DNA of 44,858 nucleotides from Rhizaria sp. SCN 62-66 (Eukaryota): positions 1 to 44,858 of the forward strand of contig MEDY01000250.1 in the NCBI GenBank assembly GCA_001724265.1, given 5' to 3'. A program made the translations under genes and the position numbers. Within the stretch, counting starts at the first letter, position 1, and every line of letters starts with the position of its first letter. A model generated the notes under the pieces. It was not told the origin of the DNA, made no database searches, and saw nothing but the letters and a program-made list of their open reading frames with translations. Positions 1,078 through 28,200 of this stretch are shown here, piece by piece.

Positions 1078-1200
1078 ATGATTACATCCTGTCTCATTCT
1101 GGCCGCGGTTGCGACAGCGGTGTTTAGCTGTCTTGTCGTGCTGCTTTTGCCACGCTTCCTCGCGCGGTATCTCATCCCCTGGCTAGTGCACACTCTCGCC
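1078..1200 (+). other. N-terminal transmembrane/signal anchor of the giant protein
   Basis: MITSCLILAAVATAVFSCLVVLLLPRFLARYLIPWLVHTLA is a hydrophobic stretch followed by basic residues. BLTP2-family proteins are anchored in the ER by such an N-terminal helix. Confidence 0.8.
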
Positions 1201-4200: not shown

Positions 4201-7200
4201 CAGATCCGTCCCCAGCTTTGGGGTTGGATTCGCCAGGCAGGCTTTGCTGTGCTGTCTGCAATTACAGCCTCGGCTGCGCTCGGCGACTCCCTGACACTGG
4301 GACGTCGCAGTCTCGCCCTTGTTTTGGGTTCGAATGATGGTAGCAGCAGCGTTGATGAGTGCGGAGACACTGTCCGTGCGAAATCGAGCTCAAGCGTTTC
4401 CGATGTTACTTCACAAGGTGTTGTCACCCCGCGCGGCGAGTCGATCCACGCGCTGTCCTCTGTGGTGAACCCCATCACACTCAGCCTCGTGTCTGTGCTG
4501 CGCAACACGTCGCTGCCGGCGTCTCATATGACCGATTGCGAGTGGGTCAAGCTGTGTGCGCACCACTCCGTGACTGCCACTTCGGCCGCCGCCAAGAGCG
4601 ACCGCTCTGTTGGGGTCGGTGCTCCGCAGTCGCGGTCGAAGGGGTACTTGCCCTTACACGCCTGGCCGGTGCAGTGGGCGCCCGCGCCGGCGCTGCTTGA
4701 CACCTGGCGTGCCGTGCGGCAAGCGAAGCTCGACGCCACTGCCGCGGCCGCTGCTGCTGTCTGCGCCTGCCGCTGCAAAAGCAGTGTCGACAACAAGAGT
4801 ACTTGTTCTCATCCCAACGCCAGTGCGGGCACGAGTGAGTGTACATGTAAGTGTACGTGCGCTGAAGCATGCGAGCCTCCTGTTGTGGTCCCTCTCCATC
4901 GCAACACGGCTTCGACAAACACGAGCAGCAGCAACTGTGATGGCGCTGTCGATTCTGATATTGCACCCATCACTACGGGAACAGTCCCCGTACCAGATGC
5001 TGTCGACGTTGTTACTGAGTGGTTCAACACTCCTCTGCCTTTACCGTTCTCTTTCCCGCACGGCACACATGCCGCCGCAGCGGCGACAGCGAAGCGGCTG
5101 AACTTTACCCCCGCTGCCCCGTCACCTCTGTCTGTGTTCACGCTGCCTGCGGTGACCGTGGACGTGGATATGGCCGTGACTGCAGTCTCCGTGTCGTACT
5201 ATACGGTGCCCGTACCGTTTGCGCCGTTACTTGCTTCTGCCGTCAGGGCTACGGACACTAACAATGCAAGCTACAGTTCCGGCACAGATGGTGTGCTTTC
5301 AGTGCTGTTCATGAACGGCCTCTCAGCTCTGACCGCGCCGCACCTGACGGCTCCCGCCGCTGCGACACGCGCAGCCGGTCCGCTGCCGCTTTTTTGTTCC
5401 GGAGCGCGTTTTGCACCACTCGATGGCATATTTTCGGAGCCGATGCTGCCGTTGTTCCCGCCGACACCGGTTTACGCCGCACCCACCGTCACGACCACTT
5501 CGAGTTCTGGCAAGAAAATTCACACTGGGAGTAGCAGTCTTGCTTCCGCTGGGCATGCGACAGACGTGAACACGGTGAACGTTTGCTACGTGCAGACAAA
5601 GCCACAGCGTATTGTCCAGCTTACCCTTGCCCACAGTCGCGTCACGACCCGGCTGAACCTGTTCACGCCCACGTACGCATCTGCATTCTCTGCTGCGAAC
5701 GCTGCCCTCTACCCGCTTGGCTGCGACAACAACGACACAAGCGGCGCCGTTCCCGGCGTTGCTGGAGCCTACTTACCTCCGATTGCGACCGCCACTCACA
5801 ATAAGACTATGCGCCCTGATGAGATTGCAAGTGCATACGAGCGTGCTGTTGCCGCAGTGACTGCGGCCGAGGCGGCGGTGGCTGCGGCCGCTACTGTTCC
5901 GGGCGAAGGTGCAGTGTTCGCGTTTGTTTTGACCGACGCGATTTGCGTTGTCGACGCTGTGTATTCGCATAATCACATTACCCTGAATACCTTTACCAAG
6001 CGTGGTAGTGATGATCGTCACGGTGACGACGAGGCGAGTGATGATGAGCACGGTGACGATGATAGTGCGAGCGCCAGTGATGGTGACGTTGAGCCGCAAC
6101 AACACACGTCTGCGACTGCTGTCGGCGCCGTGCCATCTGCCACCAATCACAGTCCCACGCGTGTTGGGATGAAGTTAGGTCGTAAGCGCTCTAACTCTGT
6201 TTCCGTTGCACCTTTTACGTCCACGGAGTCAGCCTCCGGTGTCGACGCTCACGAGAAGAACAGCAACAAGCACACTGTGCGTATCGACATTACATCTCCT
6301 GCCTCCACTGCGGGTGCAGCGACTGTCACGACTGCTAGCGCGGGGCCGCGAAAGGGCGCCGCGAACCGAGCATATGCGCGCTTCCGTCGCAACGCTGCCG
6401 CTGCTGCCGCTGACGCTTCTCAGAACTCGAACGCAAACAGCTCTGGATCAGCGGATGCGGATGCGCCTGTGCGTGAGTGCAACCGCCCTAACTGGAGTGC
6501 CGGCGTGGGAGAGAACGTGTACGCGTTCGAGCCTAAAATGCTGTTCTCAGTCCCGTCGGTTGTCGTGAGTGTGCCTATTATGCCTCCCAAGCCGCCGTGC
6601 CCGTGCGTCTACTGGACCTACGGCCTCGCCCACGGCAGTCCCAGCGACGCCAATTTGTCTGTTCGCGAACCGTGTGGCGCTGAGGCGTCGTCGTTTACGA
6701 GTGCGGCTGTTGAGAGTGACGACGAGAACGACAATAGCGGTGATAACGATGGCAGCCATAGCCCTAGCCCGAGTGTGCCTGACTGTCACCGCACTCTCCT
6801 GCCACCGCCGTCGCACTCTACGTCGCAGATGTCCCGCTCGGTCAACGATCACACCGATGCCATTTCGGTGCCATTCATCCCGTTGATCCACTGCGATTGG
6901 TGCACACACCTGCCCCCGCGCCCTCTGCCCCAGCTGCCCTTGATGCCTGGCCCGCACTTTTCGATTCCTTCCTGCCACGTCGCGTATTCCGTCGCTGCGA
7001 CGGACGCCGCGGTCAGTATCGTCAAAGATGTTTTGTCGTCGCTGCCTGGTGTGTTCTACTTCAAGGACCTCTCTGCGTTTGCCCCTGTGCTTATGGGTAC
7101 AGCCAGTGAAAGTACGATCATGACGAGCGCTCTGCGGCTCGAAGGCGACCCCAACTGGCCCGTTATTACCAAAGGCATGCCGCTGCCATCGCCAGAAATT

Positions 7201-10200
7201 TCTGATGTCTCTCTGTCTTCTGTCTGGGGCGAGACAGGTTTATTCCGCGATTCGCAGTCTTCTGGCAAGTCCACCACAGGAGTGACACGCAATGCACACA
7301 AACACCAGTTCATCCTGGGCATGACGACAGAGACGCGCGCATCAGAGATGCTGCACTTGCGGCTGCAGCATGTGCAGGTTGACTTGCCGACTGAGGAGCT
7401 CTCTGCGACACTGCTTGCTGCGACAGCTGGCCTTCACCCAACTCAACTGAGCAACACCGGCATTCATCGTGGCGGTGTTAACTCCACTGCAACTGCCGCC
7501 GCTGCTGCTGTTGCAAGCGCCTGCCCAAGCTTTATTAAGTCTCCCGTCGTTGCCGAGAGCGATAATATCACTTGTTTATACACGTTCGTCGCATCCGCGG
7601 TACACCTCAGCATAGACACCACTGTTGACGATTGGTACGCATATCTCTCGCACGGTGTGCTGTCGCGTGATGCGTCTCCGATGCTCACAGTTATTGACTG
7701 CGAACTCCGCGGCGGCGACGCGAACGTGCGCAGGGGTCCCATGATTCATCCCAACGTTCCGAACGACTTTGTGTACTCGCGTCGGCAGTCAGAGATGTGG
7801 GGACGGCGCTGGCACGAACTCTACGCAGTGATCCCGCGCACGCTTACGCTGCCGCCTGCACACGGTCACTCTCACGGCCATCGCGCTCGTGCTGTCACTG
7901 TGCCCGTTTGCGAGGCACTGCACGGTGGAACCCCGAAGTTTCTCGTCGCCAGCGCCCGCGGCTGTCGCCTTGTCGGATCACCGTCATTCTTCCCTTCTCT
8001 GCTGCGACTGATTGACCAGACCGCGAGTGTCATTGGTGGGATCAGGCAGACGATCTACACGATGCTCTGGCCTTACTGCCCGCGCGCGAAACATGTGTGG
8101 CTTGTCCAGAGGGTTGCGCACGCAGCAGCGCTTGCCGACGCCGCCGTCAGTGCGGCCAAGGCAAACTCTGAGTCTGGCCGCAGTAAAAACAATGCAGCTG
8201 CAGCAGTTGAAGCGACAAAGGCGGTTTCCGCGCTTGTTGGCAACTCACGCTCTTATGCGGCAACTGTTGCTTTGACGAACGTTCCCTCTCGGGAAGGCGT
8301 TGGTGCTGATGTAGAGCCGGTCTCTGAGACTGCTAAGGATGACTCACACGACTCTCACTGCATTACAAGTCTTAACGAGTACGATTTTACGCCAGGTTCT
8401 GGGTTATCCTCGCTGTCTGGAGTGCGTTTTATCTGTGCACGTGCTGCAGCGTCTGCTCTTGACGCTGAGGCGGATGCCCTTGCTCGTACTTTAGCCTCCG
8501 CGAGCTCTACTACGACTCTCGCTCTTCCTGTCCCTGCAGTTTCCACTCTTGCCCCTGCTGCACTGTCACCTGATTTGACTTTCTACCGTCATCCGATTGC
8601 TCTCGCCGTGTTAGCCGCTCGCAGGCACCCTCAGTTGGCGCAATGGCTGACGTGGCACCAGTCGTTGCGCGCGCCGTGGCTCGCCGACTCGGCGCTTCAT
8701 GTTTCACTAGACGCGTCTGATATTGCAGTCGAGCTGGCGTTTCCCACTGACAACGCCGAGGGCGAGATCAACGGCGTCTACCCGCCCACAGATGCGGCGA
8801 CGTTCCCCGCTGCCACCGCCGCGTCTGCGACGGCACGTCGAACAGATTCTGACTCGGGTGCTTTCATTTCAGCTCCGACTTCTTCTGCAGCTTATGGTGC
8901 TGCTGCGAAGTCAGGGCGCAGTATGTCTGTCCGGCTCCCGCCTTTGCCGCGGCCTGCGCCGATTGCGCTGACAGTTACTGTCGGCCGCTTCCAGTCATGG
9001 TGCCTGCCCCACGCTTTCCGTTTCGAAGACGTTGGTATTACGCTTGCCAACGCCGTGCGCCCTCTCATAACTGTGGGCTGCGTGACGATGACGCGGACTG
9101 GATTTGTTCCCGCGTTTCTTACTGCCGCCTTCAATGAGCCGCTCTCGTTTCTCGGTGAAGGATTCTTGGACTTGACACTTGATATTGCACGCGTTCGGCT
9201 GAATGTGTCTTTGCGCACACCTCTGCGCCACCTGGTTCCTGTTGTTGCTGACAACATGCTAAGTTTGTTCTCAGCACTCTCAACCACTGTACCCTCTATT
9301 GCGTCGTACTCTCTGTGTCGCGGTGGCGCAGGCTATACCGGATTCCCGTCTCTGCCGTCTCCCAGCATCTCGCTCGCTCTCGCGGACTGCGCCGCGGTGG
9401 CCGAGGAAGAGCCTCTCGAGGAGTGGCTTCGGCGCATCACCCCGGTCTGGGGAGTCGAGCGTCGCGTGCAGCTTCAGCGCGAGCGCGTGCTCGAGGTCGA
9501 GTGGCGGCGCATAGTTGAAGTTGAGAAGGCGAGCCATATCCGGGCTGTGCTGAGTGGTCTCTATGATGATATTGCGCCTGTGCCTGTTTTCGCAGCTCCC
9601 GTTGTGAAGAACTTCACTCCTTCGCCGTCTGCTGTTGCTGCCGCTATTGCTGCTGCCACCGCCGCTGCCGACTCCACAGCAGATGCTGCCTTGGCTAAAC
9701 GTCCAACCGGCTCAACTCCTTTGATGCCGTCGTTCTCTAAGCAGCTCACTGTTGCTTCCGGATTTACGAACAGCACCGATGCTGCTTTTGCTTCGAGTAC
9801 CACCAGCCCGCCAGCACCATCGCCGCGGTCCTTGTCTCCGCGCGCGCGCAACTCACTGCCTCTGTCTTCCCCCAGAGCGGGGCCCCTCGGCTTCGCCCCT
9901 GGATCGCCGCGCACTCGTGTTTCCGTCTCGCTTGCTCCCCCATCTCCGCTTAATATTGCAAAGACTAGTGGGGCCACACAAGACGAGGATGATTCCATGA
10001 ATGCAGTTTCGGCTGAGGGTGCGATGCCCGCTCTCCCGAAGACTCCAGTCAAATCGAGCCCTGTCGCTGGTCGTGTGGCAGCACCACCGATGTCGCCAAC
10101 AGCGAGTGTAAGCAACACCGCTGCCGGCCGCGGCCGCAGTCTCACCGTATTGTCAGCTCCTTGCCCTGTGCCGCTAGCGCTCGTCGAAGACGATGATGAT

Positions 10201-13200
10201 GACGACGACACGGGTGCTATCACCCCTGACACTGGGGCAAAACCAGCTTCAACTCCTGACAGTGGCGCTAGTGCTGCAGAATCCACAGCGGCAAAGAACA
10301 AGGCGGAGTTGTCTATGAGCTTGCTTAATCTCAACGCAAGCAACACGGACAGTCGACGCGATTCCCGCTCGATTTCTAAGAAGATGGCTGATCGAAGCAA
10401 CACCCCGCCCAGCAGCAGCAATGCTGACGGGAACCTACATAGCGAGAACGACGACGCCTTTGAGAGTGCTGAGACAGCTGCGGCACGCGCTGCAAGCACT
10501 GCAGTTGCTGACGCGCAAACTCTCCTCGCTCTGCGTGCTCTGTTTGCAGCATCCGAAGTGAAGCCGTTTGATCCAACATCACTATTTATCTCATCCACCA
10601 TCGGTCAAAACGTGTATCAACACAGTGAAGACATTCTCGGCCCATCTCTTGCTTCAGCTGCCGCCAACGCTGCTGCAGCTATCAACAGCTCGACTGGCAC
10701 CGGCTCTGCCACTCGTGCACCGCTTAATGGCAGCAAGGCACTGCCTGATAGCATTGAGTCTCTTTTAAACTCTGCCAAGGCCGAGGGCTTTAGCGATAAG
10801 AAGATGCGTAAGCTGCTGTCTAAGTACCACGCTTTCAACCCCCGCTCTCCCATCGTCAACCAGCAAGCTGGCGGTCTCAGCTCGCCGTCGCCCCCCAGTG
10901 CAACGAGTGACGACTCGTACGCGGACTCACCGCCTGGTGATGCAACGATTGCCAGCGGTGCTGCGGCATCTTTGCGACGCCCCACGCTTGAGCCAGTGAT
11001 TATGACTCCGGAGCTTCTTGACAAGATCGTGAATCACCCTCTGTCGACAGTGTTCCTGGCACGACTCCTCGCCCGGCGCGCCCGCATTAACGCGCGTGTG
11101 CAGGCCAAAAACTCGAGCGAGTATCAGGCCCGCGCACGCGGCGTGTTCTTGCGTTTGCAACGGCAGCGTACGAGCGACAAAGAGGCCGATGCAGTCTCCG
11201 CCGTCAGGCTCAAGGCCGCTCCGCTGATCGCCATTGGCCCGGAGGAGGGCGGTCTCGGCCACGCACAACTGCGAAGGCTTTGTGGCGGCAGTAGCGAAGT
11301 GCTATCGGCAATCTCGACCGCGACCGGAGGAGCTGGTGCGGGAATTCCCGGCGCCGAGGCCGCTGCTGCGGCTGCTGCTGACCCCATCACTGTCAACGCG
11401 AAGGCATTGCGCGTTGCGGCTAGAGCTAAGAATACCGTTGCAGATAGGCCTGTTGCCGCGTCGGATGTGAATGGCTCTGCTAGCGCGTATTGCACACAAC
11501 ACTGCCTGCCGTTGTATCTCGCATATTCGAGTGCAGCCTATCGCGTGCGCCACAACCACCATCACCATCACCATCATCATCAACACCACCGCAACCATAG
11601 GGCACATAGTAGCTCCGTTTCCGACTCCGCCCAGTCCGCTGCTGCAGTGGCGATGGTCTTGCCGTCGTCTGCTATTAGTGCTTGCTCACGTCCATTGGTA
11701 TTACTGCGGTATGCTTTACCTGTGGCACCCGCGAACGGCTATTTCTATGGCCCCATTGCTGCTCACGCTCGCTCCGTACTTCACTTTGCCCAGTCTGCGA
11801 CTGAGATGCCCTATGCGTTCTACGGGCATTCTCAGACACTCCAGACTGCAGTCGCTGCCGCAATCAGCTCCGTCGCAAAGAACTCTGCTGCGGTCTTTGC
11901 AGCACGTGATCGCAACGACCGTGCATTGCGTGAGCGCCGGCGTGCCTTGCGGAGGCAGACGAGCATGCTGCCTACGCCCCCACGTTTCCCTTTGCCGCCA
12001 CAAATTTCTGACCAGACCGAGCTCGGAGCTTTGAGCCCCGATTCCGCAAGCACGCTCGCGTCGCCAACAAAGACTGCTGAGAGCGCTGTTCCTGGCGCGG
12101 TTAGCGGACTGATCCGGACTATGCACGCTGCTCGTGGTGACCGCTGCGGTGTCAACGCGGACGACTCTTGGCACTTAGGCTCGTTTCACTACGCGCCATC
12201 ATGCAGCGGCGGTCTTTACGCACAGACTCACCCAGGTTATAATGCCAGTGCGACTGAGACTGACCACCGTGCACCTGCCGTTGCCGCTGCTGTGCTGCGC
12301 CGTGACTCATCACTCGCTCCGCTTTCTTCTTTCACCGCCACTGCGGCGCTGACGTCGCCGTTCACAGCACGTGTTGCAACGACTGCACGCGAGCGTCGGG
12401 TGTTGACGGTTACGAATACCAACGGCAGCGCGAGCGCGGACGCCAAGACAAACAACACAGGCACCGAGAGCAAACCTGTATGCACTGCAGTTGTGGTAAG
12501 TTTTGCAGCTTCTGCGTCTGCGACTGAACTGTTCCTTTTTGGGACCTCTGCCTCCGCACTCACCGCTGCGCCGGTTGATGCCCGCAACTATCTCACAGTT
12601 CCCCTGTTCCCGGCAACGACTGTGGCCCGCGTCTCCAGTGGCGCAGTCACAGCGGCTATCGCGCCCCGCAGCGGCCCCGCTGCGTCCTGCTACCATCACG
12701 TGATCGGACTCTATACGGAACCGGTTGCGACTACAGGCCGTGGTACTGCTGTTGCAGCCGCAGCTGCTGTCTCTAAGGCAGTGCGCGCGGTAGCAGTGCG
12801 CGAAGGTTGCCGCTGTTGCGGTGCGTTCACCGCGCTTGGTGCAGGTCTTGGTACTGTTGCAGGCGCTCAAGGTTCCGCGACTGCTGATGTCGGCGTCATT
12901 GACTCGGCGTTACCCCCGTTGATTCCGATGCTTTCTGTCGAGACACATATTCAGGCAAAGACAGACTCTGAAGGAGACAACGTCCGCAGCAAAGCTTGCG
13001 CCGCAAAGACGAGCTCCACGAATGGATCTCGTTTGTTGACAACTAACCAAAGATGCGACTCCCCTACGGTAGCAGCAGCTGCTGCTCTTCTGGCAAAGGC
13101 TGCGGGCGCAAGCGTTGACAAGAGTTCTGCGACTGAGGCACAGTGGTTGCCTCACCAGGGCCTTTCTGTCGTTGCAGCTGGCGTCGATGCCGTGCTTAGG

Positions 13201-16200
13201 GCTGAGATTCCACGGCTTAACTTAACTGCTGGCGCGTCGGCTGCAGCGGGTTCCCAGGCTGCAGATACGGTCGCGATGGTTGACATGACTACTGATGTGG
13301 CTGTTCCGATGCAGAACATGACTAACGCTTTGTCTGCACGCGCTGCGTTCATCGCTGCGTCGGACACTCCGACTTCAGTCGGTGCTAGTCCTACCTCCGA
13401 GACGAAACTGCAGCATCAGAGTGTGTTTGATGTCCTACAGTCGGAGGGGGTGTCGACAGTTGCCCCCACGATTTTTTCTGCGAAGGACAGTGTTGGCTCA
13501 ACCGTGAGCTATCTCTTCGCTGGTTACAAGTCGCTTGGATGCCAAGGGTACCTCAAGCAGCGTCTCGCTGTTGCAGAACGCGCTGAGGCATTTGCGGTAC
13601 AGTCACTTGCTGATAGCGTGACAACAGGTATTCGCTCTGTCCACATCTGCTCTGCGGCCTGCAACAAGCCCACAACTCCACATTGCAACAATAACAGCAA
13701 CAGCAACATTAATGACAACAGCTCGCACCCTGTTGGAGCTCACGTTTGCCCGCAGTCCCAGAACACGATCCCAACTGTCCTTACTCCTGTTTTTGCACAA
13801 TCGATCGCACTCACAATTCCGACGATCCGCGTTTTCCTGCGCTCGTCAGCTCTTCCTCTAGTGTCACTCCGCGATCTAGCGGTCTCCGGGACCATGATGC
13901 TCGCATCAGCGCCATCTCCCGCTCTTGCGCTTTCGACTGCCCGCTCTGCAACAATTTCGCTTGATAATGTCCAGAAAACACCAGTGCCTACTTCGGTGGC
14001 AGCTATGGAGCGGTTTCCTTACCACATGTTCATGGATATGGATGTGCACCTTGGTGGCGTCGGCGCTTCTTTTGCTCCATCTTTCCTGGCAGCACTGCGC
14101 GACACTCTGATTCTCGGACAAGTCTTGATCCCGCCGCTGCCGCCACTTGCAACTGTAATGGATTTGATCGACGTAGTAGCTGCTGGTGATAACATGGCCA
14201 CGTGGACTGGAGCTGGGGCAAGTAATGCGGACGATGTTAAGAACAACAGCGATGGTACAAGACCGAGCGTTGGCGTCAATGCGTCATCCCACTCAATTAT
14301 TGACACGCTGAGTGACGATGACGAAGATGATGCTGTTCTTGCTGACATGATTTCCCGCTCGTCAAACTACAACAACAAATTGGAGACCCTAAAGACATCT
14401 CAGACAAATGCAGCTGGCTCTGCACTGCCACTCTCTGTTCAATTCCCGTCGCCTTTAGACCTCCTCAGGGCTTGCATCCATCCAACTATTACTGTTGCTG
14501 TTGACAGCGTCGATGCATTTTTGCTCACTGAAGACGTCAACGCAGTTACTTCTGAGCCTGATGGTCGCATCCGTGCGCTTGCTCAGGCTGTTGCCGATGC
14601 GGCTGCAAATTCTCAGTCTTTAGAGGCAGCTGTTGAAGCCGCTACAACTGCATACAATGCATTTGTTTCTGCCTTCAGCCCGGGTTCTGCCTTAGCGGTC
14701 GCAGCAGCTGCACAACAGCAGCAGCAACAAAAGCAAGCGCAGCAGCAGCAAGAGCAACCGGCTGAGAGTGCTGACGACGCAGCAGCAGCCTCGGTACCGC
14801 CAATGCCATCCCCTGTGTCAGCTGGTTCTGGTAGCGACATCAGTGTTTCTATTGGTGCTGCTGGCGCTCGTGCAGGTGGTGTGGCGGCAAGCGGAGGTGA
14901 AGGTCGCTTATTCACCCAACCCCACGACCCTATTGGCCGCTTCCGCGACGAAGGCGCTGCCGTTGAGGAGGACCCTGTGGTCACCTGGGGACGTATTGCG
15001 AAGGAAATTATCTCACCGACTTCACCGTCGCGAGATCATATTGCGACTATGGCTAGTGCCGGACAAGTCGATACTCGCAACACTGTTGTCGAAGACGATA
15101 ACAGCGCTCAGATGCTTGACAGTGTTGGAAAGCCAATGTCATGGTCGTTGCCGTACTTGGCATCGACTGCAGGTACAGTGCTTGCAGCTGTAGCTGCTGA
15201 GGCTGCGGAAGAGGACAGCCGCGCGTGGTCTCCGCCTGACGCACGCTCGTTATTCTCGTCTCTCGTGCACTCGCCACATCTTGCGTTGCTATTTGCGCGC
15301 GATCTCTTGGTCCCACACATCAATGTCTCAGTCTTTTCGATCCAAGTCTCGATTGTCGCGGGTGTTATTCGTGTCAGCACAGGTACTGTCTCTGTGCTGC
15401 CGATCACTCCACACGAGGTCGGACTCATGGCAGCTCATACCCAGTCGAAGGAAGGTGAGTGGTTCCGCGAGGCGACACGGCACGCGTTTGCCCGTGTTGA
15501 GTCATACCGCAACTCAATCTTACGCGCCTTCCGCCTCTCGCGCTGGGCGGACGCAAAGGGCGTTCTAGGGTGGTCATCTGCTTCAGCGTTAGAAGCGGAG
15601 GCGACTCGACACAGTAATGCTCAAACGATGAAGGGTATGGACTGTCGTGTGTCTGCAGCGTGGAGTGATTTTACTCTGGACCCTCCCTTGAGCGCAGCGT
15701 CTTCAGTACCCGGTCTTATGACGCTATATGGTGGCTGCATCAGGGCTACACGAGCGCGCCCGCTGGTGCGCATTCCTTCGTGTTCTCTTGCGATCGCGAT
15801 CAAATGGCAAGTCGTAGAGCATGCTAACGCTCTCGCTCTCGCTGTGAGGCATGATCCACTGACGAACGATACGTCACTGCCTGGGAACGCAACCACTGCT
15901 TTTGCGGATAATGTCTCTGGAGCAAATCCAGCCGTTGACACTAAGGTGTCGAAGAGTCAGCGTCGCCAGCAATACATGAGCCGCAGCCGCTCTGCAGCAC
16001 TCGCACTGAAGGAGACTGCGACACTAGCGCTTCGCCCGACGATGGTGCGTCAGAGCATTGCACACGTGGTTTTGTACGTGACAGTTGGTACTGTTGCACC
16101 TGAATCTGCTGCGATGCTTGTTGCACCGGATGGAGATCCCGTCACTGTTGCTGATGCAGCCGCTGCTGCTGCCGAGGCTGCTGCTTACAACACAGGCTGT

Positions 16201-19200
16201 GCTGACGCGGATTTTACTGCATATGCCAAAAACAACCTTGCAGCTGTCATGACTGGCGCTGGGCCGTACCCTGCTGTTGCCCTGGCTAAAGAAGCTGGGT
16301 TTGCACTTCCAGATATGCCTATCAAGAGTGTTTGCGCTGGCTGCGGCCACTATCCGGAGGCAAAGAAAGGGTCCGGAGCATGTTTGAGCTCTGAGACTCT
16401 GACCAGAAATGGCACCAACAACGACAATACCGGTCGTAAGTCAAAGGACACTGTTGCTGCCGGCCGCGATCGAAGCAACATTGTCACAATTGATCTCTTC
16501 ACCCAGACTGTGCCATTCCTAGTCAAATTTCTATCACGCTACCTTACGACTACCGTTGCTGCACCACTCGTTTCGTGCCAGCCTTTGGTCTCTGTGCGCC
16601 GAGCTGGTACGCAGGCGGAGTCAGAGTCAGGTGCTGCACTTTATTCGTTGTTGTCACAGCGCGCAGATAAGCTTTCCGTTACGAGTAGTAGTTCAACGGC
16701 TGCGGCCGCAGCTAGCTTTGATGTAAGTAGCCACAATACCATTTCTGGATCTGATGCGTACGACAATGAGGTGATGCAAGCTGATGGCCTGCGCTTCCGT
16801 CATCACAGTGACATATACGACAACAACGATCAGGACAACAACCACGACGATAGCATTGCCTCTATCGAAGGCGATCTTAACGATACGATTGACGACGGCG
16901 ACGATAGTGACTCTATATCATCCCAAAGCACCGCGTCCGCGACCGACTTGGCTTCCTGGGACGCATCGTTTAGCCTTAGTCTTGACGCATTGCCTCCCGC
17001 TGCTGTCACCGGTGACAACTCGTTCGATATGCCTCGTCCGGAGGTTCTTATGCACGCAGAGGCACCAACTCTTAGAGTGGTCAATGGCCAAAATCTCCCC
17101 GCGTTGCAGCTGACTCGACAGCGGTCCTCGAGTGAGACCTACGACAGCGCTTCAAGCAAGCACCAACAGCCTGATGATCGCATTAACTTAACTCCGACGG
17201 CGACTGCATTTGCTACTCCGACGCGCTCTCGTCCCGGTCTCCACATAACTCTCGGAGGTGTGCCAACTAGCCCGACCACAAGCTATAAGCGCTGGAACGC
17301 TCTTTCTGAGGCTCAAAACCAAGTGCCGTTACCAGGACCGACACCACGGTATCAGCGACAACACGCGGGTCCAGTTGCAGTTCCAACTGGTGCTGTTCCA
17401 ACACCGTCAGAGGATAACAACCGATCCACACGGTCACCGCTCACGGTCACCGTTGTGCGACTTGGCTCTGTCCACGTTGAGCAAGTCACGGTCGGTGCTG
17501 TTGCAATGACAGTATGGGGAAGTCAGCCTGATACCCCGTCACGTGGAGTTGTAGTTGGTGTTGAAAGTGTTGCATTGCGTGTTGTATTGTGGGATGATCA
17601 AGTGCGTGACATGTGTGTTCGCACATTGCTTGCTTCCCAGCAACTTCACCAACAGCAGAAGCAATGTCAGTATTCAACTTCGTCAGCTGCCGTTGATACT
17701 GAGCTGGACCCACCTGCGTGGTTGCCGCAGCTGGGTGGTGGTGAGGCCCTTTGGTCCTCGATCGTTCCATCTACACGTGTCCGCTCTGCATTCTTTAGTG
17801 ATATTGCACACTCTCTCCTCAGCAACACCACGTTCACGAGCTCAAGTGCACCTTCTGAGCAGGAGGCTGTTGATGCGGTGACCGACGCTGCTACGGTTGT
17901 GTCGACGAGCTCGTGTCCATTCCCTATCCCTCCAGCCACACATACGTTTGGCTGGTTGCGCACAGCGCTTGTGCCACTTCCTCTCCCACCTCTATGCATT
18001 GCGACGCACGAGGCGCCTTTCGGAAGCGTCACCGCACTTCCACTCGCGTGTCCTGTTCTACTGGGAGAGCAAAGGCTTGCACTCAAGGCGTGTCGTAAAC
18101 TGCTTAAGGTCGGTGCACCTGTTTTTGTGGTGCCTGATTCATGCACAAATAAGTCGCATCATGATGCGAGTCAACGTGCGTCGCATCATGACGCGAGTCA
18201 ACGTGCGACGGAGGCTGGCGCTTCTCAGTCCAAGTTTGAGGCACCACCGAGCAGTACCCGGGCAGCGATGCGCGAAGACTGGTCATTTGCAGAGCTACCA
18301 AAAGCAACTGTCACTGACGCTGATACTGCCACTCCCAGCTCTGTTAGGCAACTCCCGACGTCCTACGCTTTCGGCAGCAATCCTAACGCCACCGCTGGTA
18401 ACAAGACCATTGCAAGCAACGCCGAAACGTCCCCAACGCACAGTCTTGCGTCGTACTTGCCGCAAGACAGCGACTTTATCTTGGCGCCATTGCTTTCCCC
18501 GCTCCCTGCGCCAACATATTCACTATCTGCGCTCACTCACTCGGCGTCCGGTGTCAAGGTTGCCGTTGTGTCGACTGTTGCCCGTCGTCGCGCTGACGCA
18601 GCAGTCGGCTCAGCATGGGCCCGATGGACATCGCCGGACTGCACGATTGTCGCAACATGGGAAAACGAGCGCCATAACCTGGGTCGCGGCTTCTCAAAGC
18701 GTTTCTTGCTCCCGACTGATCGTCCTCACTTTAGCACACAGGATGGCGATCGCGCACTGCCGCGTTCTGCTGTGACGCTGCCATCCTCAGCATGGGTGTG
18801 GGAAACACCTTGGATGGTTGACACACTGATTCGCGAACCCGGCACTGTGGACGCGGAAGGGTGGGAGTATGCGCACGATTTCCCACGTCAGTTTAGTGGA
18901 ACCGAAGCGTGGTACTCGAACGTACGGCGCAGGAGGTGGATTCGAGTCCGTCGCCTAGTTAACCCAGAGAGTAGAGACACGGTGTCTGCTAAAACCGGCT
19001 TTACTAGCAACAGCGTTTCTTCGGGCGCTCCAGTTGGCGCACAGCCGAGCGATTTTATTTCGCCTCAGTCAAGCACTGCTACTACCCAGCCTCATGCAAG
19101 CCCCACTACTGCGTCTTCTACTGCAAGCCGTGCCGTCAATGAAGGATCGAACACTGGCGCTCCCAATCTGGCGCAAATGATGTTGCCAAAGGGGTTGATC

Positions 19201-22200
19201 ACGTACGACGCAGACGCAGAGCGCATAGAGGAGGAAGAGAAGCAAGACAAGCAGAAAAAGAAGCGCTCATTCCTCTCGCGCTATAACGAGAAGATGGTGC
19301 TTAAGTTTGGGAGGATTTTTGGTCGTTTCAACCGACCGACGAAGGATGGTTCCGTCGTCGTCACTGCCGCCGAAGCCTCCGCTGCGGCAGCGGCTCGCGA
19401 GGCTGCGGAGAGCACTGCGACTTTATCAGCGGCACCTTCTGCTGCCGTTGTCTCACCAACTGGCACTGGCTCAGGAGTGCCAGCTGACGTAGTGACTGGA
19501 AACATGAGTCGTACGAGTATTGCTAGTAGTAACACTAGTTCGTCCGATTTTGTGAGCCCAATTGACGCAGATGTTCTGCTGGCCAACGACCTGCAACCAC
19601 AATCGTCTCACAAAACTCCGCCTTCGATGGTGTCTCGCAGCATTGCAAAATTTGGCGATACCGTAAAGGCCAACGCAATCGAAAACGATTCTAGCCACAG
19701 TATCACTTTTGAGCAAGAAGCGATCATTGTGCCAGATCTAATGACCCACGATGTTTACCAATGTGTATGCTGTTACACTATTGACCCGACGAATACTGAC
19801 AATAACAGTAACAGTCGCTGCCCTGACCCAGCCACTTCTGGAACTCAGGACATTACCACCCTTCTCTCGTTTTATTACGACGACGGGCACGCTCGTTGTG
19901 ATAATGGACCTTCTACGAATCAGGCAACGAGCACTCTCTCGTCGTGTTGCACCAACTGTGGGAGTACCACAACAAGCGCTCTTCGCACACGCCCCCGGTC
20001 GGCGGATCCTTACATCGACTATGACGCTCCGCTAGATGAAGTCACTATCATATCTGTTGCGATTGTTGCAGTCACACAGCGACCTCATTACACTCCCTAC
20101 CCAATCGCGACAGCTGATCCGACTTATGCGGCTCACCTGAACGGCTACATGCGTAGCATTTTCTCGCACATGAACACTGTTGCCATGTCTCGGAATATGA
20201 CTGACATCTCTGCTGCGCGAGGCGCGGTGCGAGCATCACCCTTGATGCCAGCGACTGAGATCTTGCCAGTTTTAGTGTTCCGCAGCGTTGTATCAGTGTC
20301 TTCTTGGTCGCATCCGCTGTGGCGTGCTGCTCCGGATCCCGGACTCGTCATCGGCAACCGTGGTACTAGCGCACATGCTGCTGATTATAGTCGACCTAGT
20401 GTGGTTCGCCTGGGGACACCACACGTGAGGATTAGTCCGGCTGCGACTGCCTGCGTTGCGATGCGTGGACACACGCACACCCTCTCAGTTGTGACTGGAC
20501 GCCACTTGTCGATGTCGCCACAGTCTCAGCTTTCTCCGTCACGGAAATTAAAGTCGCACACGAGGCCGAAGCATACATTGCGTTTGCGGCCGCACCGCCC
20601 GACGGACTACGTATATAGTGGAAACGTTGTTAGCATTCCATCGGCTCACAGCGCAAGCCTCCCATCTGTTTCACTGTCGTTCACCCAGCTTCGCCGCCGA
20701 CTCACCGCGTTGTTCGCGCAACATCTTGGCGACTACGGCAGCCCGCTCCTTCGAGTGGTAACACCTGCGACAAGTGCATCAGCTGCAATTGTGAGCACAA
20801 TTGCTGCTGCGGTCACGGGAGCAACATCCAACGATACAGATGTTGCGAAGGCTTTTAATGCTGCAACAGCACCAGGACTTGTTTCTGCGATTAGCGCTTT
20901 ACAACTTACTGTCTCTGCGGCTTCCGCAAATGCGTACAATCACACACTCTGCCACAGCCACATTGATACCGCGACGCTGATGGCCGACAAGTGGGTCACA
21001 AACAAATTCATGCGGACAGGCGCGCTTGCGAGGCATGATGTCACAACCCCTTCTGGTGTCTCAAGTAGGGAGAGTGCGTTAACAGGTTTCAAGAAGGTGC
21101 TGTATATTGTTTCCGAAGAAGTATCGACTGATCTTGCGGCTAACATCAATCATACGACAAACAACACAAATGTTGCATCTGCTAGCATCAAGCAGTCCGA
21201 TGCGATCACTGCACCTGATATGTCGATCACGATGCCTGCGCTACGTGTGGCCGCTATGAAGCAGGCCAGGCTCCACTTATCACACGAGTTGCGTACTGCC
21301 GATGTCCAATCACTTGTCTTGTCACCAGCAGCGATTCTGACTGCGTGGCCTATCGGATTTGCACAACTTTGCACGCCAGCCTCCGTAGCTGCTGGTGCAC
21401 ACGCAGCCCATCTTATGTCAAATGCCCCAGCTACAGTGACATCCGACGCGACCGCTACTGCGGCTGGTAAGGACAGTTTATCTGCTGGTCCTGTGCTGAT
21501 GTTGTGTCCTCGTCCAGTCACCTTCCTTCGCTACGACATCGGGAGCAGCAGTATGAACGCCATGGCATCAATTACAACAGGGTTGACTCTTGCAACTGCA
21601 GTATCTTCCTCCGTTGCGAGTCGCATTCTGACGCAACTTTCTAGCCAACTAACTGCACCCACAGTCAATGATATCGCAGCGGCGTTTATGACTGTGCTGT
21701 CGCGCTATGTTGCAGATACTACAACACTGCGCCCGCAACCGCCTCACGCAGTTTCGGTTGCTTCACCACGCGCATATCTTTCGCCCCGCGGTCTCGAAAT
21801 GGTCTCCGAAGTCGCAATGGCCTACAAGCGTGTGGTTGAGAACCCTGATTTGTATGCTATGGTCGAGACTGTGCTTACATTCATGCTTGGTCGCTCTCTC
21901 TTAGATACGGCGACAAGGCAACGCCAGGGCCGTGCTGCAGAGGTCACCGCTAGTAGGATGCGTGCTTCAATGGAGTTTAGTGCTTATCAGGATCATGACA
22001 CCAGTGATGAAGACAGGAATGACTACGATTACTCAGCCGAGCACAGCGATGATAATGAACGTGACTGGTTGCAATGCGACAATTCTACTTTCACGCGATC
22101 TGCGACTGAGTTTAGTAGCTCATCAAAACAACAGCAACAACAACTTCCCCGTTGGCGTCGTTCCCGCGCAACTGTTGGATCGGCGTTGAACTCATCAGAC

Positions 22201-25200
22201 TTTTTAACTCCAGCCAACGGCGAGCCAGATTCTCTCACAGACGATGTCAGTAGTGAGTCAGTTACAAGCGCTATGTCTTCCTTCAGCAGTGGCAGCGAGT
22301 CTGACGCAAACTCCAGCTCTACTGACATTAGTGACAGCGATTCTGGCAGCCGTTCGGACAGCGAATCTTCTCGCACCGATAATTCTAGCGACGATGACGA
22401 CAGTGGCTATCGTACCAGTAACACGCACGCATCGAGTTTTTCCGGCAGTCGGTACTACACTGCAAAGCCAACGGCTGGTGGTGGAAAGACAAGTCGCATT
22501 CCGCGTAAAGTAGCCCGACCTACTTCGACCGCTGCAGCAGTTGCTGATACTCCCCACAGCACAAAGGAAGTGTCTGTCTCGTTTTGGCTTGCACACCAGC
22601 GCCGTCGTGTACGTGCTGCTGCGGTGCGCTGTATTCGTTCATCTACGGTCACTGAATTCGAACTTCAACAGCAAAAGCAACATTGCGCCACAACCACTTT
22701 AAGCGCTAAGACGCTGCAACCTTGGCCTACGCGCAAGACTCGCGAGTTCACCACAACGCCCGCGACGACGCAGATTACTCGATCCCACGATAGCCATGCT
22801 GGAGCGCGTGCGATGAGTCCCCCCGGTCCGAAGTCCGTGGCTGGAGTGCGTTACGCAGCTCGCGTTGCCGCGGCGCACCGCGCTTTGCTCGCCCTTTGCG
22901 GGCGGTGTGGTGGTGTCGGGTATGTCACAGCACCGCGGGGAGGACTTGAGACGCAGGGCCCTGGTCGGCTTGAAGCTATGCGCGATGGTGATGATGCTGG
23001 AGTGATCGCTGCTGTCCAAAACCTTGCTATGGTGAGCAAGGGCTCAGGAATGTTTGCGGGACTTCCGTCTCTCTACTTGCGTAACATCTCCACGGAAGGT
23101 ATTGTTTTAGCTGACACAGACACTGATAACGGATTCATCAAGACCCACTGTCACTTTGACAGCGATGAGTTCAGGGAGAACGGCCACGACAGTGTTTCGA
23201 GCACTGGTGCTAATCCTGATGTACGCTCTGTTTTGGCCGACTTGGATCACATTTTCAGCGGCTACCCGACTGTGGCAGCTGATGTAAGGTACCTGGTTAC
23301 CAGCAACCCTCTAACTGGTGGCCTGCAACATGAAGCTATCGACATGGGCTCTAATCTCAGTGCGGTTATGGCAGCGGCAAGCAACAGTAATAGCAGCAAA
23401 AACGATGCTCATTTGAGCGCTCAAATTATGCAGAACAATAATGATTCCGGGCATAATAGCATCCGACGTGGCCGCCGGTCTAACGGCATTTTGGCTAGCA
23501 CACTGAACAACGCTGCTGCAATCGTTGCTTCACTATGGTCGCCTGCCTCCTCACCACACAGTCGTACTGTGCATGGGTTGTCTCCCACCGCAGCTGCAGC
23601 TCTGGCTCTTCGTGACACCGCCGCGCGCGCAGCGATCTACGCCACTCCCGTCAGTGCGGGTCCTATCCTGGAGGGCGTTGCATTTAGTCCAGAAGAGACA
23701 ATCGTTCCCTGTCCGCTGTGCCGATGCTCAGCTGGCTCCATGCGTCGCGTAGCTGCGAGTTTGTCTGCCATTGGTGTTGGACTTAAACACTTTGCATTAC
23801 CTGCTGATAGCAATGCAGAGGCTGTCCTGAGTAGCCCGATTGAGACGAGCCCTGGTGGCGGTGGCATCGCTTCTGGAGATGCATTTACGACGACTGGCGA
23901 TGTTTGCGATCAGGAAGAGAAGGATGACGACAACACACTCAACGACAAAACAAATCCCCGCCACGGTCGTAAGGCGAAGGGTTCTTCCAGCCGTTCACTA
24001 GGTACGGAAGACCTCCACTCTGCAGACTTGACTCATAAACAGGAGTCAAATCTAAACATCACGCATAACAACAAGTTTGGCCAAATCCACCATAAGTTGC
24101 CGTCTGTCCCTGTGCCTCTGACTAGTACAAGTGCGACGACGGGGGCTACAACATTAGGCGTTAGTGCTGGATCTACTCGTACAACACAACAGATGGTGAC
24201 TGTCACTCTCCCTCAACGTCTACAGTGCACTGAGGCGATTTTTTCTTTCAATGTCACCGACGCTCAGGCTCAGCTGGATCACCGTGAGGCTCGTGCCCGC
24301 GGCACACTGTTATTTGCAGTGCAACAGGTCGGCTGTGTCATCAGGAATGAATGGGTAGCGCCTGTGCGCGTCTGGCCCGCTGCTGCTGTCACTGGTGGTA
24401 CTGATCAGACGGTTACATTTAAGACAAGTGTGATCACAACCAAGGGGATCAGGGGAAATGTTCATGATAGCCGGAGCGGTGTAACTTTAAACGCCGGAAC
24501 TAAACATAGTCACGACCAGCCTTCCCGCCCCTTTGCGCTTCCTCTTCTTCCTCCTGTATTGGCCGCTAAGACTGCTGCTTTGGCTGACTGTTTAGCGCGT
24601 GCGATTGCCCCACGTGTGTTTATGCTTCCATCTGCGCTGCATAGTGTTGCACCGATGTTGACTGTCACGGCAGCACAGGTTTTTGTTACCGCTGCTGATG
24701 TTGACGTCACATCTGGAGTCACATGGTACACTTCACCCGCTGCTCCTCAATCACGGGATCGCATGCGCGATAGTCTCTTCACAACAGCGGTAGACGTTAT
24801 TATGGCTGCTACTGCCGCCACAGCGGCTGGCAGCTCCGCCGCAGCAGCGCTTTGGCAGGTATCGCGTTCTGCTCGTGCAAACAACACCACGAGGTCGTCT
24901 CGTCAGCGGTCTACTGTACTTCGCCGTGCAGCAAGCAGCGGCGGTACAACCCCACAGGTTCCATCACCCAACGACGGTCGCACTAGCTCTTTGGCTGCAG
25001 CACCCATTGCTGGTCCTGCTAGACTCGGAGATGACACCTTGAGTGGCATTGGCGCACGTGACGTCGCAGGTGTTGAAGGCAGTGGAAATAGCACAAGAGT
25101 TGGGGGGAGCTTTGTGCACAGTCACTCTGGTGACGCCATCGACAACATTACTCCCCGTGATTCATCTGATAATATCGCTGCGATCCCTCTCGCCAACGTC

Positions 25201-28200
25201 AATGGTGGCGTTCAAGGTGATGTAAATGATGAAGACTTTGATCAAGAAGAGGATGCGCGCGATCATTTGTCAGCCGCCGGTGTATATGCCTATCTCCCAT
25301 CGACCTTAATCTCAGCATCACCATTGACTGGACCGGCATATGCATCAGCTCCTGTCCGCCAAGCCATGCTATCTCTCGACATGATTGAGGGCGGAAACGG
25401 AGTTATTCCAGGCCCACAAACAATGAGTAAACTTAAGAGTAAGAAACCTGCTGCTTTAACTTTAGGCATGGATGACAGCCTCGCCCAAGCTCAAAGCACT
25501 CACGTTACTGCTAAGGTGAGTGGTCTCAAACCTCGCCAGAAGGCGTCTCAAGCTGCCTCAGTGGTACCTCCTAGTGCCTTTACTCGTTTCAACGATAACG
25601 GCTTCCTGAAGCCTTTGACATCACCCATCACAGTTCGCGTTCAATGCTCAGTGCACCCCCACGCACCGCTGCTCACCACACCGATTCCAGCTCCAGTGCT
25701 TGAAGTCACGACACTCAAGCCGTGGCTGTTGCGTGGACTTTCTACCCCTACAGCTGCAGCTGCGACTGCAGCTGCAGCTGTAACTGCAGGGCGGGCTAGT
25801 GGGACAGCTGACGAGTATGACAGTGACGATGACGTGCACAACGATGCTGACGATGACTTCGAGCAAGACAGGGGTTTCGGCTCTGCAGTCCGTGGCCGCT
25901 CAGCGACGACGCTAGTTAACAACAACCACGGCAATAATACGTCCTCTGTCGGACCTGGTTCAACACTCGGATACGTCCTTGGATTTAGTACTCGCAACAA
26001 CTTTTCAGCTCTTGGGTCGAACACCAGCATTGAAGGCGGAAGCGGGGTAAGTCGCAGCGGCCATGGGACAACAATCTCTGCTCTCCGTCGTAGTCCCTTG
26101 AACCGCGGGCGTCTTATGTCACCTGATCAGCTTGCTCCAACGCCTTACACTGCTGTTTCTGCTGCTGCAGAGGCACTTTCTGGTGGGCTTTTGAGTGCTG
26201 AAACCGTTCATGACTTGTTTGTTGCACAACACGCAGCTTACGTTCACACCCAAGAACAATTCGACAACGCAGTTGTTGGTGGTGCATCTCAGTCTGCTTC
26301 TGGTTTGCAATCAGGTTTAAGCGATCACTCATCGCTGACTGGCGATTTGCGGGACGATATCAACAACGGCTCGACGATCACTGCTGCTGCTTTGGCCACT
26401 GCTTCGCTTATTGCGCCGATTCTGCCCAATTTGCCGACAGCTGACGGGTTATCGCGCCACCAGGGTCTTGCTCAGACAGACTCAATTGCAGCCCGTCCTA
26501 GTGGTGATTCTATAGATAACACTGTTCCTACATCGCAAAGTCACGACAATCTCAGTGCCTCAACAAGAGAGTTTGCCGATTCTCACGTCGACCGGGCAAT
26601 GCGTTCATCGCTTTCAACCTCCCAGCTCCCCACCGTTTTGTCACGTCCTCTCCCAACTCTTGCTGAGTCCCCCATGCGGTTCGGATCAGCAGGATTCAAG
26701 CTCAACTTTTCTCCCTCCGCACCGCGTCATCGCCGTGACCTGAGCTCTCCGTTATTTCTGGATACACTCGTACATAACATGTCAGCAGGAAAGCGTGGCA
26801 CTTTGGCTGGCATGAGCCCTATCACTGGCAGCTTGAAACGCGACGGTGCTGGATCAACACAAACCACGCTGTTCTCTATGTTACCGAGTGCTACCCTTAC
26901 CAAGCTTGCGAAGGGTGTGGAGCAATCGAACGCTGACACACATTTGCAAAGGTACGCTGCATTCACACACGTATCACAAAAGCACGGCCACAGGTCCAAG
27001 TATGGAGCTGAAGCGCGCACTCGCAGCAATTTACACGACATACAAGCCGATCACGCTCATCCCCATGACAGCGCGACTGACGACGACTCTCAATTAAAGC
27101 CAAAAGTACGGTTTGCAGCATCAGCACCCGTTTCCACGGTGAAAACTGGAGGGAGTCGACACGATCAGTCTAATGCGGTGTCTGACGGCATTCGCCATGG
27201 CTTGGGGAAGTACTTACCCTCGAAGCACCGTCGCCTCCTACTTTCCGCATTGACAAGCCGTGCTTCACACGTGCGTGATCCGTTCCACTCGGATACGAAC
27301 ACTGTCCAGGCACAACAGAAGCCCCAGCAACATCAGGCCCAACGCCAACAGCAGCCTTACCGTATTCGTCAGCAGCAAGGTCAAGGCCAACCTGCTGTTC
27401 GTCCCAGTGACTGTGAAGACATTGCAGATGAGCTTGAGTCGTCTGCTGCATACATTGCTGACTCTGCTGCTCAGATGGCGGTTAAGTTAGATAGTGAGAG
27501 CACGAGCTCGAAAGGTTTTGCTGATACTCCTCTTGCCCGGAATCTTTCACAAAACCGCCCTGTGACCGCTAATGCTGCTGCAGCAGCTGCTGCAACCGCA
27601 GCCGCAACAGCGCTTATCGCGAGCGAAATCTCATCCTTCGCTTCTGCTGCATGGCAAGCCGCTTCTGCAGGACCACATCCATACACCGGCGTTGGCGTCG
27701 ACCGTCACGCTGTCTCAGTCTCGCTGCCACCGTTTGCCGTCTACCTTCGTGCTGAGCAATTAGCGGTTGTTGGTCGCATTGCAAAGGAGTTGGCTGAATT
27801 CCAGCCTGCTGCTGCAGCCGCAGCTGTGCAGGCTGGCGTTATGAATCCCGAAGGCGCCAGCTCTGAAAAGAGTCCTACTAAGGGTGACAGCAAATCAGAT
27901 GGCTCTCAGTCATTGGGCGGGCTATCGTTGGTTTCACTTGAGTCACTAGCAACACAAGCGCTCTCTTTCTTGATCGCACCACGCGATCGTCTCCGTGCCA
28001 TCGGTCTTATCTTAGAGCGTTTACGCAGTGATACCTCACTTCCGCCAGGATTAATCCGTGCGCTGTCACCACTCTCGCCACTTTCGCTTGTGACTCTTTA
28101 TGCGCGTCTGCGTCGGCTGCAGCAGACGCTTCGGTGGTCGATTGCAGACGCAGGCGCATTATTCGGTGGACTCAGTCAAGACTTGCGCACGAACACTCCT

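Follow-up and report, generated by a model that had tools for sequence, protein, structure and literature searches.

A DysF domain in a 13,007-codon open reading frame of Rhizaria sp. SCN 62-66 predicted to encode a highly diverged BLTP2/Hobbit-family protein

An open question in the field is what directs bridge-like lipid transporters to the correct membrane. Targeting of BLTP2 proteins has so far been ascribed to their C-terminal tail and to an adaptor that contributes a lipid-binding domain in trans. Specifically, canonical BLTP2 needs the adaptor Hoi1/Bbo/EEIG1, which docks on a helical "handle" of the rod and whose NT-C2 domain, which binds lipids, sits close to the rod's C-terminal part (PMC13104988). 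Here, we describe a DysF domain located within a giant protein that appears to be a diverged member of this family and that is encoded by a single open reading frame (ORF) on contig MEDY01000250.1 of Rhizaria sp. SCN 62-66. The whole 44,858-nucleotide contig was analyzed and is referred to as the window.

DysF domains are known from several membrane-associated proteins. TECPR1's N-terminal DysF domain inserts W77 and W154 into sphingomyelin membranes (PMC10476172), and in Pex30, Pex31, and dysferlin, a loop with aromatic and basic residues mediates binding of the DysF domain to phosphatidic acid liposomes (PMC12101078). Two cases concern bridge-like lipid transporters: plant (Viridiplantae) VPS13M carries a DysF domain in cis, inside its VAB domain (PMC10683392), and in yeast, an adaptor complex of Vps13 includes the DysF-only protein Spo73 (PMC8372973).

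The DysF domain and the giant open reading frame

The giant ORF contains the following features; residue numbers count from its mechanical start, and E values of the blocks refer to domains of the family profile described below.

997..40020, + strand: single giant ORF of 13,007 codons, stop-free, encoding a diverged BLTP2/Hobbit-family protein
1081..1149, + strand: N-terminal hydrophobic helix (ORF residues 29-51), followed by an LPR motif; Kyte-Doolittle 19-residue maximum 2.9
8968..9678, + strand: conserved Hobbit-family block (ORF 2658-2894) with beta strands and a long helix; E 1.3e-30
13702..14373, + strand: conserved Hobbit-family block (ORF 4236-4459); E 1.9e-12
17422..17601, + strand: short conserved block upstream of DysF (ORF 5476-5535); E 6.8e-7
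18415..19212, + strand: DysF with family-conserved flanks (ORF 5807-6072); E 2.4e-57, 179.7 bits
18634..18945, + strand: DysF core (ORF 5880-5983), supported by Pfam PF06398, structure 8p5p_A, the AlphaFold2 model, and Foldseek; W5972 is the equivalent of TECPR1 W154
38650..39495, + strand: C-terminal conserved Hobbit-family block (ORF 12552-12833); E 1.2e-8

The stretch at 18634-18945 is a DysF domain. The original prediction, made from the sequence alone, had placed such a domain at 18655-18960, and the searches bore this out. PF06398 (Pex24p) matched ORF residues 5880 to 5983 with an E value of 2.6e-7 and 30.4 bits (cut-off 26.8), the match spanning profile positions 244 to 358 of 358, which constitute the DysF part of the model. 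It was the sole Pfam family above cut-off in the giant ORF, which was scanned in 4 large chunks and in 37 overlapping 700-residue tiles at E≤5; the whole ORF contains one DysF domain, which is ~105 residues long. By sequence, the domain matched the structures solved for TECPR1's N-terminal DysF domain (8p5p_A, E 3.1e-15), dysferlin's inner DysF domain (4cah, E 1e-5), and myoferlin (2k2o, E 1e-3).

An AlphaFold2 model computed from a 31-row alignment reached a predicted local distance difference test (pLDDT) value of 93.7 and a predicted template modeling score (pTM) of 0.84 and features long first and last strands (E13-25 and E107-118). All 13 matches of this model in the PDB found by Foldseek at E≤0.001 were DysF domains, the top one being 8p5p_A (E 6.2e-10, target TM 0.91, root mean square deviation [rmsd] 1.8 Å, 40% identity). 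Consistently, the eight Trp/Arg stacking residues of TECPR1 (W116, W118, W122, W138, R159, R161, R165, and R167) are all kept, as determined by alignment to 8p5p_A with a TECPR1 numbering that was checked against 26 residues named in PMC10476172. The domain had also been singled out as the best-conserved stretch of the ORF, and this held as well: the DysF block accounts for 179.7 of the 287.2 bits obtained in the family-profile search of the giant ORF, and its identity to homologues is 42 to 51%, versus 26 to 32% in the other blocks.

The reading frame around the domain is continuous. A 4,764-base contig of run X2 spans positions 14696 to 19459 without a joint, and the DysF core is continued in frame on either side by flanks that are conserved in the family. 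Positions 997 to 40020 contain no stop, whereas ~445 are predicted from the base composition, and the other two forward frames show 18 to 84 stops per 1,000 codons, which argues that the ORF is kept open by selection. The mechanical start is a TTG at 997, and the first ATG, at 1078, is the likely start of the protein. Its Met is directly followed by 23 uncharged hydrophobic residues, a helix that is presumed from its sequence to act as an endoplasmic reticulum (ER) membrane anchor.

With 13,007 codons, the giant protein is three to six times as long as any Hobbit-type homologue recovered (2,238 to 4,024 residues). It is rich in Ala (16%) and Ser (12%), and its conserved Hobbit blocks are separated by long unique stretches rich in Ala, Ser, Thr, Asn, and Gln. 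Tandem repeats were considered as a source of this size and rejected: since the whole 44.9-kb window contains only four tandem arrays, all of them small, the size reflects unique low-complexity sequence rather than recent repeats. A word-indexed homologue search found no protein of 5,500 to 17,500 residues with a similar DysF domain in the searched collection. The C-terminal 508 residues gave no usable match in the ESM Atlas; an Atlas protein corresponds to window positions 38536-40017 and starts at residue 15 of this 508-residue query, read as M. As this sub-ORF starts inside the giant ORF, public gene calling seems to have cut the ORF into pieces, which would account for its own absence from the results of the long-protein search. 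A 27-base unit immediately upstream of the DysF flank occurs in two copies (window 18153-18207, 96% match) and encodes a duplicated "HHDASQRAS/T".

Kinship of the host protein and distribution of the architecture

The host of the DysF domain had been proposed to be a BLTP2-family protein, and it can be recognized as a diverged relative through intermediate sequences. The DysF region was searched against proteins of <5,500 residues, which yielded 26 matches from 1,600 candidates. PF10344 (Hobbit/FMP27/BLTP2) was found in 10 of these 26, 9 of which also carry PF06398. A Pfam rescan of 14 proteins gave Hobbit in the same 10, with 31.9 to 118.6 bits against a cut-off of 24.5, and the Hobbit-bearing homologues match just Hobbit and Pex24p at E≤0.01. 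A family profile was built from 10 proteins, each above the Pfam Hobbit cut-off. It matched the giant ORF with a full-sequence E value of 9.5e-90, with the same outcome when filters were switched off; 10 of the 11 domain matches follow the order of the profile, covering ORF residues 2118 to 12833, and four significant segments lie outside DysF.

These segments also agree with the Pfam annotation of individual homologues. BLASTP aligned the giant protein to P0004 at residues 2660-2847 (E 2.8e-19), at DysF (E 9e-27), and at residues 12692-12762 (E 5e-4). The block at ORF 4236-4459 aligns to residues 1615-1760 of P0018, within the Pfam Hobbit match of that protein (1391-1887), and the block at ORF 12552-12833 aligns to residues 3724-3792 of P0004, overlapping the Pfam Hobbit match of the latter (profile positions 2040-2336), so that two non-DysF blocks lie inside or overlap the Hobbit stretches of homologues. 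An N-terminal hydrophobic helix (hydropathy 2.21 to 2.62) is present in 9 of 13 homologues examined and is followed by a PR motif in 8 of those 9; the homologues without it look truncated or mis-started. Based on the collinearity with a profile of 10 Hobbit members and on the shared N-terminal helix and PR motif, we conclude that the giant protein is a highly diverged, greatly expanded relative of BLTP2/Hobbit. The domain had been described as lying between GFWDK-like and Apt1-like regions; it does lie between Hobbit-collinear blocks, but these could be tied neither to a literal GFWD motif, which is absent from the giant ORF, nor to a direct Pfam Hobbit match.

According to the literature and the original prediction, the BLTP2 proteins of model organisms are not known to carry a DysF domain. 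The combination is nevertheless found elsewhere, and all three of its reliably named carriers are Rhizaria:

P0010, 2,269 residues: Plasmodiophora brassicae PBRA_007561, uncharacterized Hobbit+DysF protein
P0009, 2,238 residues: Spongospora subterranea "Peroxin/Ferlin domain-containing protein," uncharacterized Hobbit+DysF protein
P0008, 2,865 residues: Nonionella stella EukProt entry, uncharacterized Hobbit+DysF protein

A 234-residue partial sequence labeled Beta vulgaris is also among the 26 nearest matches and stands outside the reliably named set. An exhaustive HMMER search of 1.84 billion representatives with a profile of the Hobbit-type DysF returned 2,958 proteins at E≤0.001, 845 at E≤1e-10, and 59 at E≤1e-30. 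Matches to the family profile outside DysF assign at least 12 of the 150 best representative clusters to the Hobbit type, and two new Hobbit+DysF proteins, P0056 and P0070, were confirmed by Pfam.

The position of the domain is uniform. All 10 family proteins as well as P0056 and P0070 carry it at one common profile position, which in the homologues is bounded by positions ~1344 and ~1898 of the 2372 of the Hobbit profile. In the primary sequence, DysF is located 57 to 66% along eight full-length homologues versus 46% in the giant protein, because the C-terminal half of the latter is more expanded. The identical site across a protist BLTP2 clade indicates that the insertion was inherited and is not private to this ORF.

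The architecture had been regarded as unusual. In favor of this, "dysferlin" and "ferlin" are absent from the main text of a survey of the RBG family (PMC7613979), whose supplementary domain tables could mention accessory domains of Hobbit; on the other hand, the 9 of 26 nearest matches with both PF10344 and PF06398 demonstrate that this ORF shares it with other proteins. The open literature yielded no description of DysF in BLTP2/Fmp27, although the supplements of PMC7613979 and PMC10683392 could hold one, and the only literature pairing dysferlin with Hobbit was the plant VPS13 paper. Databases already contain the Hobbit+DysF combination, in a small and mostly environmental protist clade. 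Taken together, sequence comparison identifies Hobbit+DysF as a real, inherited BLTP2 variant of a small protist clade that is present in databases and apparently undescribed.

A quick maximum-likelihood tree was calculated from 93 DysF domains in order to find the family that donated the domain, and no donor could be named with confidence; with 109 columns, the resolution of the tree is poor. Of the 20 Hobbit-type DysF domains, 19 form one clade (SH-aLRT 92), and all 20 lie on one side of a branch in the best tree, with a support of 20. This is consistent with one ancestral insertion of DysF in Hobbit proteins. Their nearest neighbors are two VPS13 DysF domains (P0154 and P0155; SH-aLRT 88), and the N-terminal DysF domains of TECPR1 form a separate clade (SH-aLRT 99) with the Hobbit domains outside it. 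The top-scoring relatives of the Hobbit-type DysF profile were TECPR1-like proteins (24 of 32 scanned), whereas among the long DysF matches scanned, 9 of 12 were of the VPS13 type. Together with plant VPS13M, the latter number shows that fusion of DysF to bridge-like transporters is recurrent.

The searches also brought up further DysF architectures. Six proteins (P0024, P0061, P0062, P0097, P0126, and P0137) are protist-type VPS13 proteins of 3,500 to 4,500 residues with DysF at the end, and in five of these six the DysF profile matches two stretches. P0060, P0089, P0110, P0154, and P0155 are VPS13 proteins in which DysF adjoins or lies inside the VAB domain. A galectin domain (PF00337) is situated between two DysF domains in 5 of the 24 TECPR1-like proteins scanned, and a 555-residue protein consists of DysF and galectin; the carriers of this combination are P0031, P0034, P0035, P0039, P0046, and P0028. 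Proteins of this kind might sense both glycans and lipids that are exposed on damaged membranes. Additional architectures were seen in P0117, P0111, P0044, and P0069; a 4,288-residue protein combines PH and DysF with C2 and a weak Sec6-like stretch, and others combine PH, DysF, and ankyrin repeats or DysF and FYVE.

Possible function of the DysF domain

Mutation of 12 TECPR1 residues (R76, W77, C84, L88, L89, S90, I142, D143, K152, K153, W154, and C157) abolished sphingomyelin-dependent recruitment (PMC10476172). Five of these (R76, L88, L89, D143, and W154) are identical in the DysF domain of the giant protein, the exposed tip tryptophan W154 being represented by W5972 of the ORF. Six positions are changed (W77 to H, C84 to S, I142 to H, K152 to E, K153 to A, and C157 to N), and a seventh conservatively (S90 to T). 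With 7 of 12 residues differing, a conserved sphingomyelin-binding tip of the TECPR1 type was not found. An aromatic residue occupies the W77 position in all seven aligned homologues of the domain, and one or more basic residues precede the tip tryptophan in six of them.

We favor, as on balance probable, the explanation that a single membrane-anchored BLTP2/Hobbit bridge-like lipid-transfer protein of ~13,000 residues uses its inherited DysF domain as a lipid-binding dock in cis. The domain would constitute a membrane-lipid-binding module built into the C-terminal half of the bridge and would insert its exposed aromatic tip into the acceptor membrane. Working beside the C-terminal tail, it would thereby contribute to docking or retaining the non-ER half at the contact site, a role comparable to that of the NT-C2 domain which canonical BLTP2 receives in trans from the adaptor Hoi1/Bbo/EEIG1. 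A function as a lipid or membrane sensor is plausible by analogy; a sphingolipid and an anionic lipid, e.g., phosphatidic acid, would be equally likely ligands.

A more far-reaching version is put forward tentatively: a protist lineage may have hard-wired DysF into BLTP2, supplementing or replacing Hoi1/Bbo/EEIG1, with DysF acting as a general module that couples transporters to membranes and may read phosphatidic acid. If this is true, the Hobbit DysF would join the cis DysF domains of plant VPS13M and of protist VPS13 and the trans-acting Spo73 of yeast, and DysF would be a recurrent coupler of bridge-like lipid transporters to acceptor membranes that might gate bulk flow.

Several observations weigh against the favored explanation. 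The tip has neither the basic pair (K152/K153 replaced by E/A) nor W77 (replaced by H), and consequently the membrane affinity of this particular domain may be weak or of a different kind; we infer lipid binding by analogy with other DysF domains. The long conserved helix at ORF 2806-2856 may, according to an approximate mapping, be the adaptor-binding "handle," in which case DysF would supplement the trans adaptor rather than replace it. PF10344 did not match the giant ORF directly, neither in the 4 chunks, nor in the 37 tiles at E≤5, nor in five isolated blocks at E≤10; this represents a failure of detection in a very diverged protein of low complexity. For the first ~2,100 residues, the family profile gave no match, also with filters off. 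The AlphaFold2 model of ORF residues 2500 to 2900 comprises five strands of 11 to 13 residues and a 51-residue helix, with a mean pLDDT of 54 and values of ~54 to 92 (10-residue block means) in the ordered part. With this low-confidence model, Foldseek gave no match at E≤0.001; Atg2, Vps13, and LPD-3 are among the weak rows (E 0.17 to 0.69), and VIA-align returned coiled-coil-like matches to the long helix alone (Z at most 5.7). A repeating-beta-groove fold of the giant protein is thus not demonstrated by modeling. A word-indexed search with block 2650-2900 had no match among 8,000 candidates and is uninformative, probably having been swamped by low-complexity words.

The RNA data are a further such point. 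In the polyA metatranscriptome run X1 (labeled activated sludge), eight short pieces among those listed match the window with 0 to 1 other letters each, scattered over positions 9300 to 24112; DNA can be present in such libraries. The pieces nearest to DysF cover 17709-17973 and 19005-19219; no RNA contig covers 18338-19004. Run X3 contributed next to nothing, so that these data do not show transcription of the DysF stretch.

Rather unlikely, yet the most probable of the alternatives, is that DysF is not a lipid binder and serves as a protein-interaction or autoregulatory module, for instance in adaptor binding or groove gating. The pattern of substitutions fits this idea, as the membrane-facing tip is degraded (W77 to H, K152/K153 to E/A) while the structural core is fully kept. 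Precedents exist in Spo73, which acts via protein contacts in the Spo71-Spo73-Vps13 complex (PMC8372973), and in plant VPS13M, where the VAB domain that encloses DysF binds adaptors (PMC10683392). Against it, the DysF domains that have been tested biochemically bind membranes (PMC10476172 and PMC12101078), and among the homologues the basic residues before the tip tryptophan and the aromatic residue at the W77 position are retained in six and seven of seven cases, respectively.

That DysF is a TECPR1-style sensor of sphingomyelin on damaged membranes, which aims the bridge at injured organelles for repair, we regard as improbable, the sequence lending weak support to TECPR1-like sphingomyelin or damage sensing. 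Among solved structures, TECPR1's N-terminal DysF domain comes closest in both sequence and fold, TECPR1-like proteins dominate the best-scoring representatives for the Hobbit-type profile (the 24 of 32 scanned), and the W154 equivalent, L88, L89, R76, and D143 are kept. The identity of just 5 of the 12 recruitment residues speaks against such a sensor, as does the tree, in which the TECPR1 clade excludes the Hobbit domains and these group with VPS13-embedded ones. In addition, Pfam chunks and tiles revealed neither Hyd_WA/Tectonin repeats nor a second DysF domain in the giant ORF.

We consider it very improbable that the host falls outside BLTP2 and represents another repeating-beta-groove protein, e.g., a BLTP1/Tweek-like giant, that shares blocks with DysF-bearing proteins. 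The lacking direct Hobbit match, a length far above that of the BLTP2 proteins recovered, and the unmatched N-terminal 2,100 residues would fit such a host, whereas the exclusive Hobbit and Pex24p matches of the homologues, the two shared blocks within or overlapping their Hobbit stretches, and the agreement of block order and N-terminal anchor contradict it. Finally, an artifact (a chimera of the assembly, or a DysF gene or exon of its own within a long open frame) is scarcely credible, for even though the contig stems from environmental data, RNA support is thin with its gap at 18338-19004, and a neighboring gene apparently contains an intron, so that the genome splices, DysF occupies the identical profile position in independent assemblies and named organisms, its flanks at ORF 5807-6072 are conserved in frame, the run X2 contig crosses it without a joint, and 13,007 codons contain no stop.

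Neighboring genes and comparison with known systems

The giant gene is flanked by two other genes. On the minus strand, a gene start at 96..1 comprises 32 codons reading MAIPVSKPKIVKKHTKAFLRHDGDKYKRIGWA and runs off the window. It is oriented head-to-head with the giant gene, and it resembles ribosomal protein L32e (RPL32-like); the fragment had no Pfam match, being too short. Downstream, the following features were delimited:

40486-43729, + strand: NIPA-type magnesium transporter gene (PF05653, E 4.5e-24; Atlas "NIPA transporter")
40486-40584, + strand: candidate first exon of the NIPA gene, 33 codons, which would supply the missing first helix
40585-40846, + strand: candidate GT..AG intron of the NIPA gene, 262 bases, suggested by the sequence and by the Pfam match starting at position 50

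The NIPA gene has a low-complexity insert of ~600 residues between its transmembrane halves. As its PF05653 match starts at profile position 50, the first exon and the intron are probably real, although both are read from sequence, and the apparent intron implies that the genome splices. An intronless, GC-rich, polycistronic genome of the kinetoplastid type was considered and rejected on account of this intron and of the RPL32-like start, whose head-to-head orientation argues against a kinetoplastid-style polycistron.

Among the closest known counterparts of the giant protein are those of the three named Rhizaria, for which no experimental study was found in the literature. Like the giant protein, P0008 to P0010 contain Hobbit blocks, one DysF domain at the same profile position (50 to 51% identical to that of the giant protein), and a C-terminal Hobbit block; an N-terminal hydrophobic helix is present in P0008 and P0009 and absent from the P0010 model. 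They differ in comprising 2.2 to 2.9 thousand residues instead of 13,007, in passing Pfam Hobbit directly, and, in two of the three, in having a basic residue before the tip tryptophan, where the giant protein has E/A. Among BLTP2 proteins, the giant protein, about five times as long as a usual member, represents an extreme case of size expansion.

Canonical BLTP2, Hobbit, Fmp27-Ypr117w, and SABRE are ER-anchored, rod-like lipid transporters of the family to which the giant protein is assigned. They obtain their lipid-binding NT-C2 domain in trans, and no DysF is reported for them (PMC13104988), whereas the giant protein has DysF built in. A natural BLTP2 clade with a built-in DysF domain would offer a ready comparison by which to ask what role a second contact plays and whether the presence of DysF goes along with loss of the adaptor.

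Outside the BLTP2 family, the solved structure closest to the domain itself is the N-terminal DysF of TECPR1 (8P5P), with 40% identity, a target TM of 0.91, and all eight stacking residues and W154 in common; TECPR1, however, has tectonin propellers flanking two DysF domains and an ATG5-binding context, which the giant protein lacks. In Pex30 and other members of the Pex23 family and in Spo73, DysF acts at membrane contact sites, as is proposed for the giant protein. These are separate proteins (reticulon-like ER proteins and a DysF-only protein, respectively) and more distant in sequence; PF06398 was built on the Pex30/Pex23 family, and the giant protein matches just its C-terminal DysF part.

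A parallel in architecture is provided by VPS13M and protist VPS13, which like the giant protein are bridge-like lipid transporters with DysF in cis. VPS13 belongs to a different transporter family, in which DysF lies within or close to the VAB domain or else at the very C terminus, often in tandem, whereas in the giant protein it is placed in the middle of the predicted Hobbit rod. BLTP2 would thus join VPS13 as a family that has recruited DysF, which hints at a general link between this domain and bulk lipid transfer.

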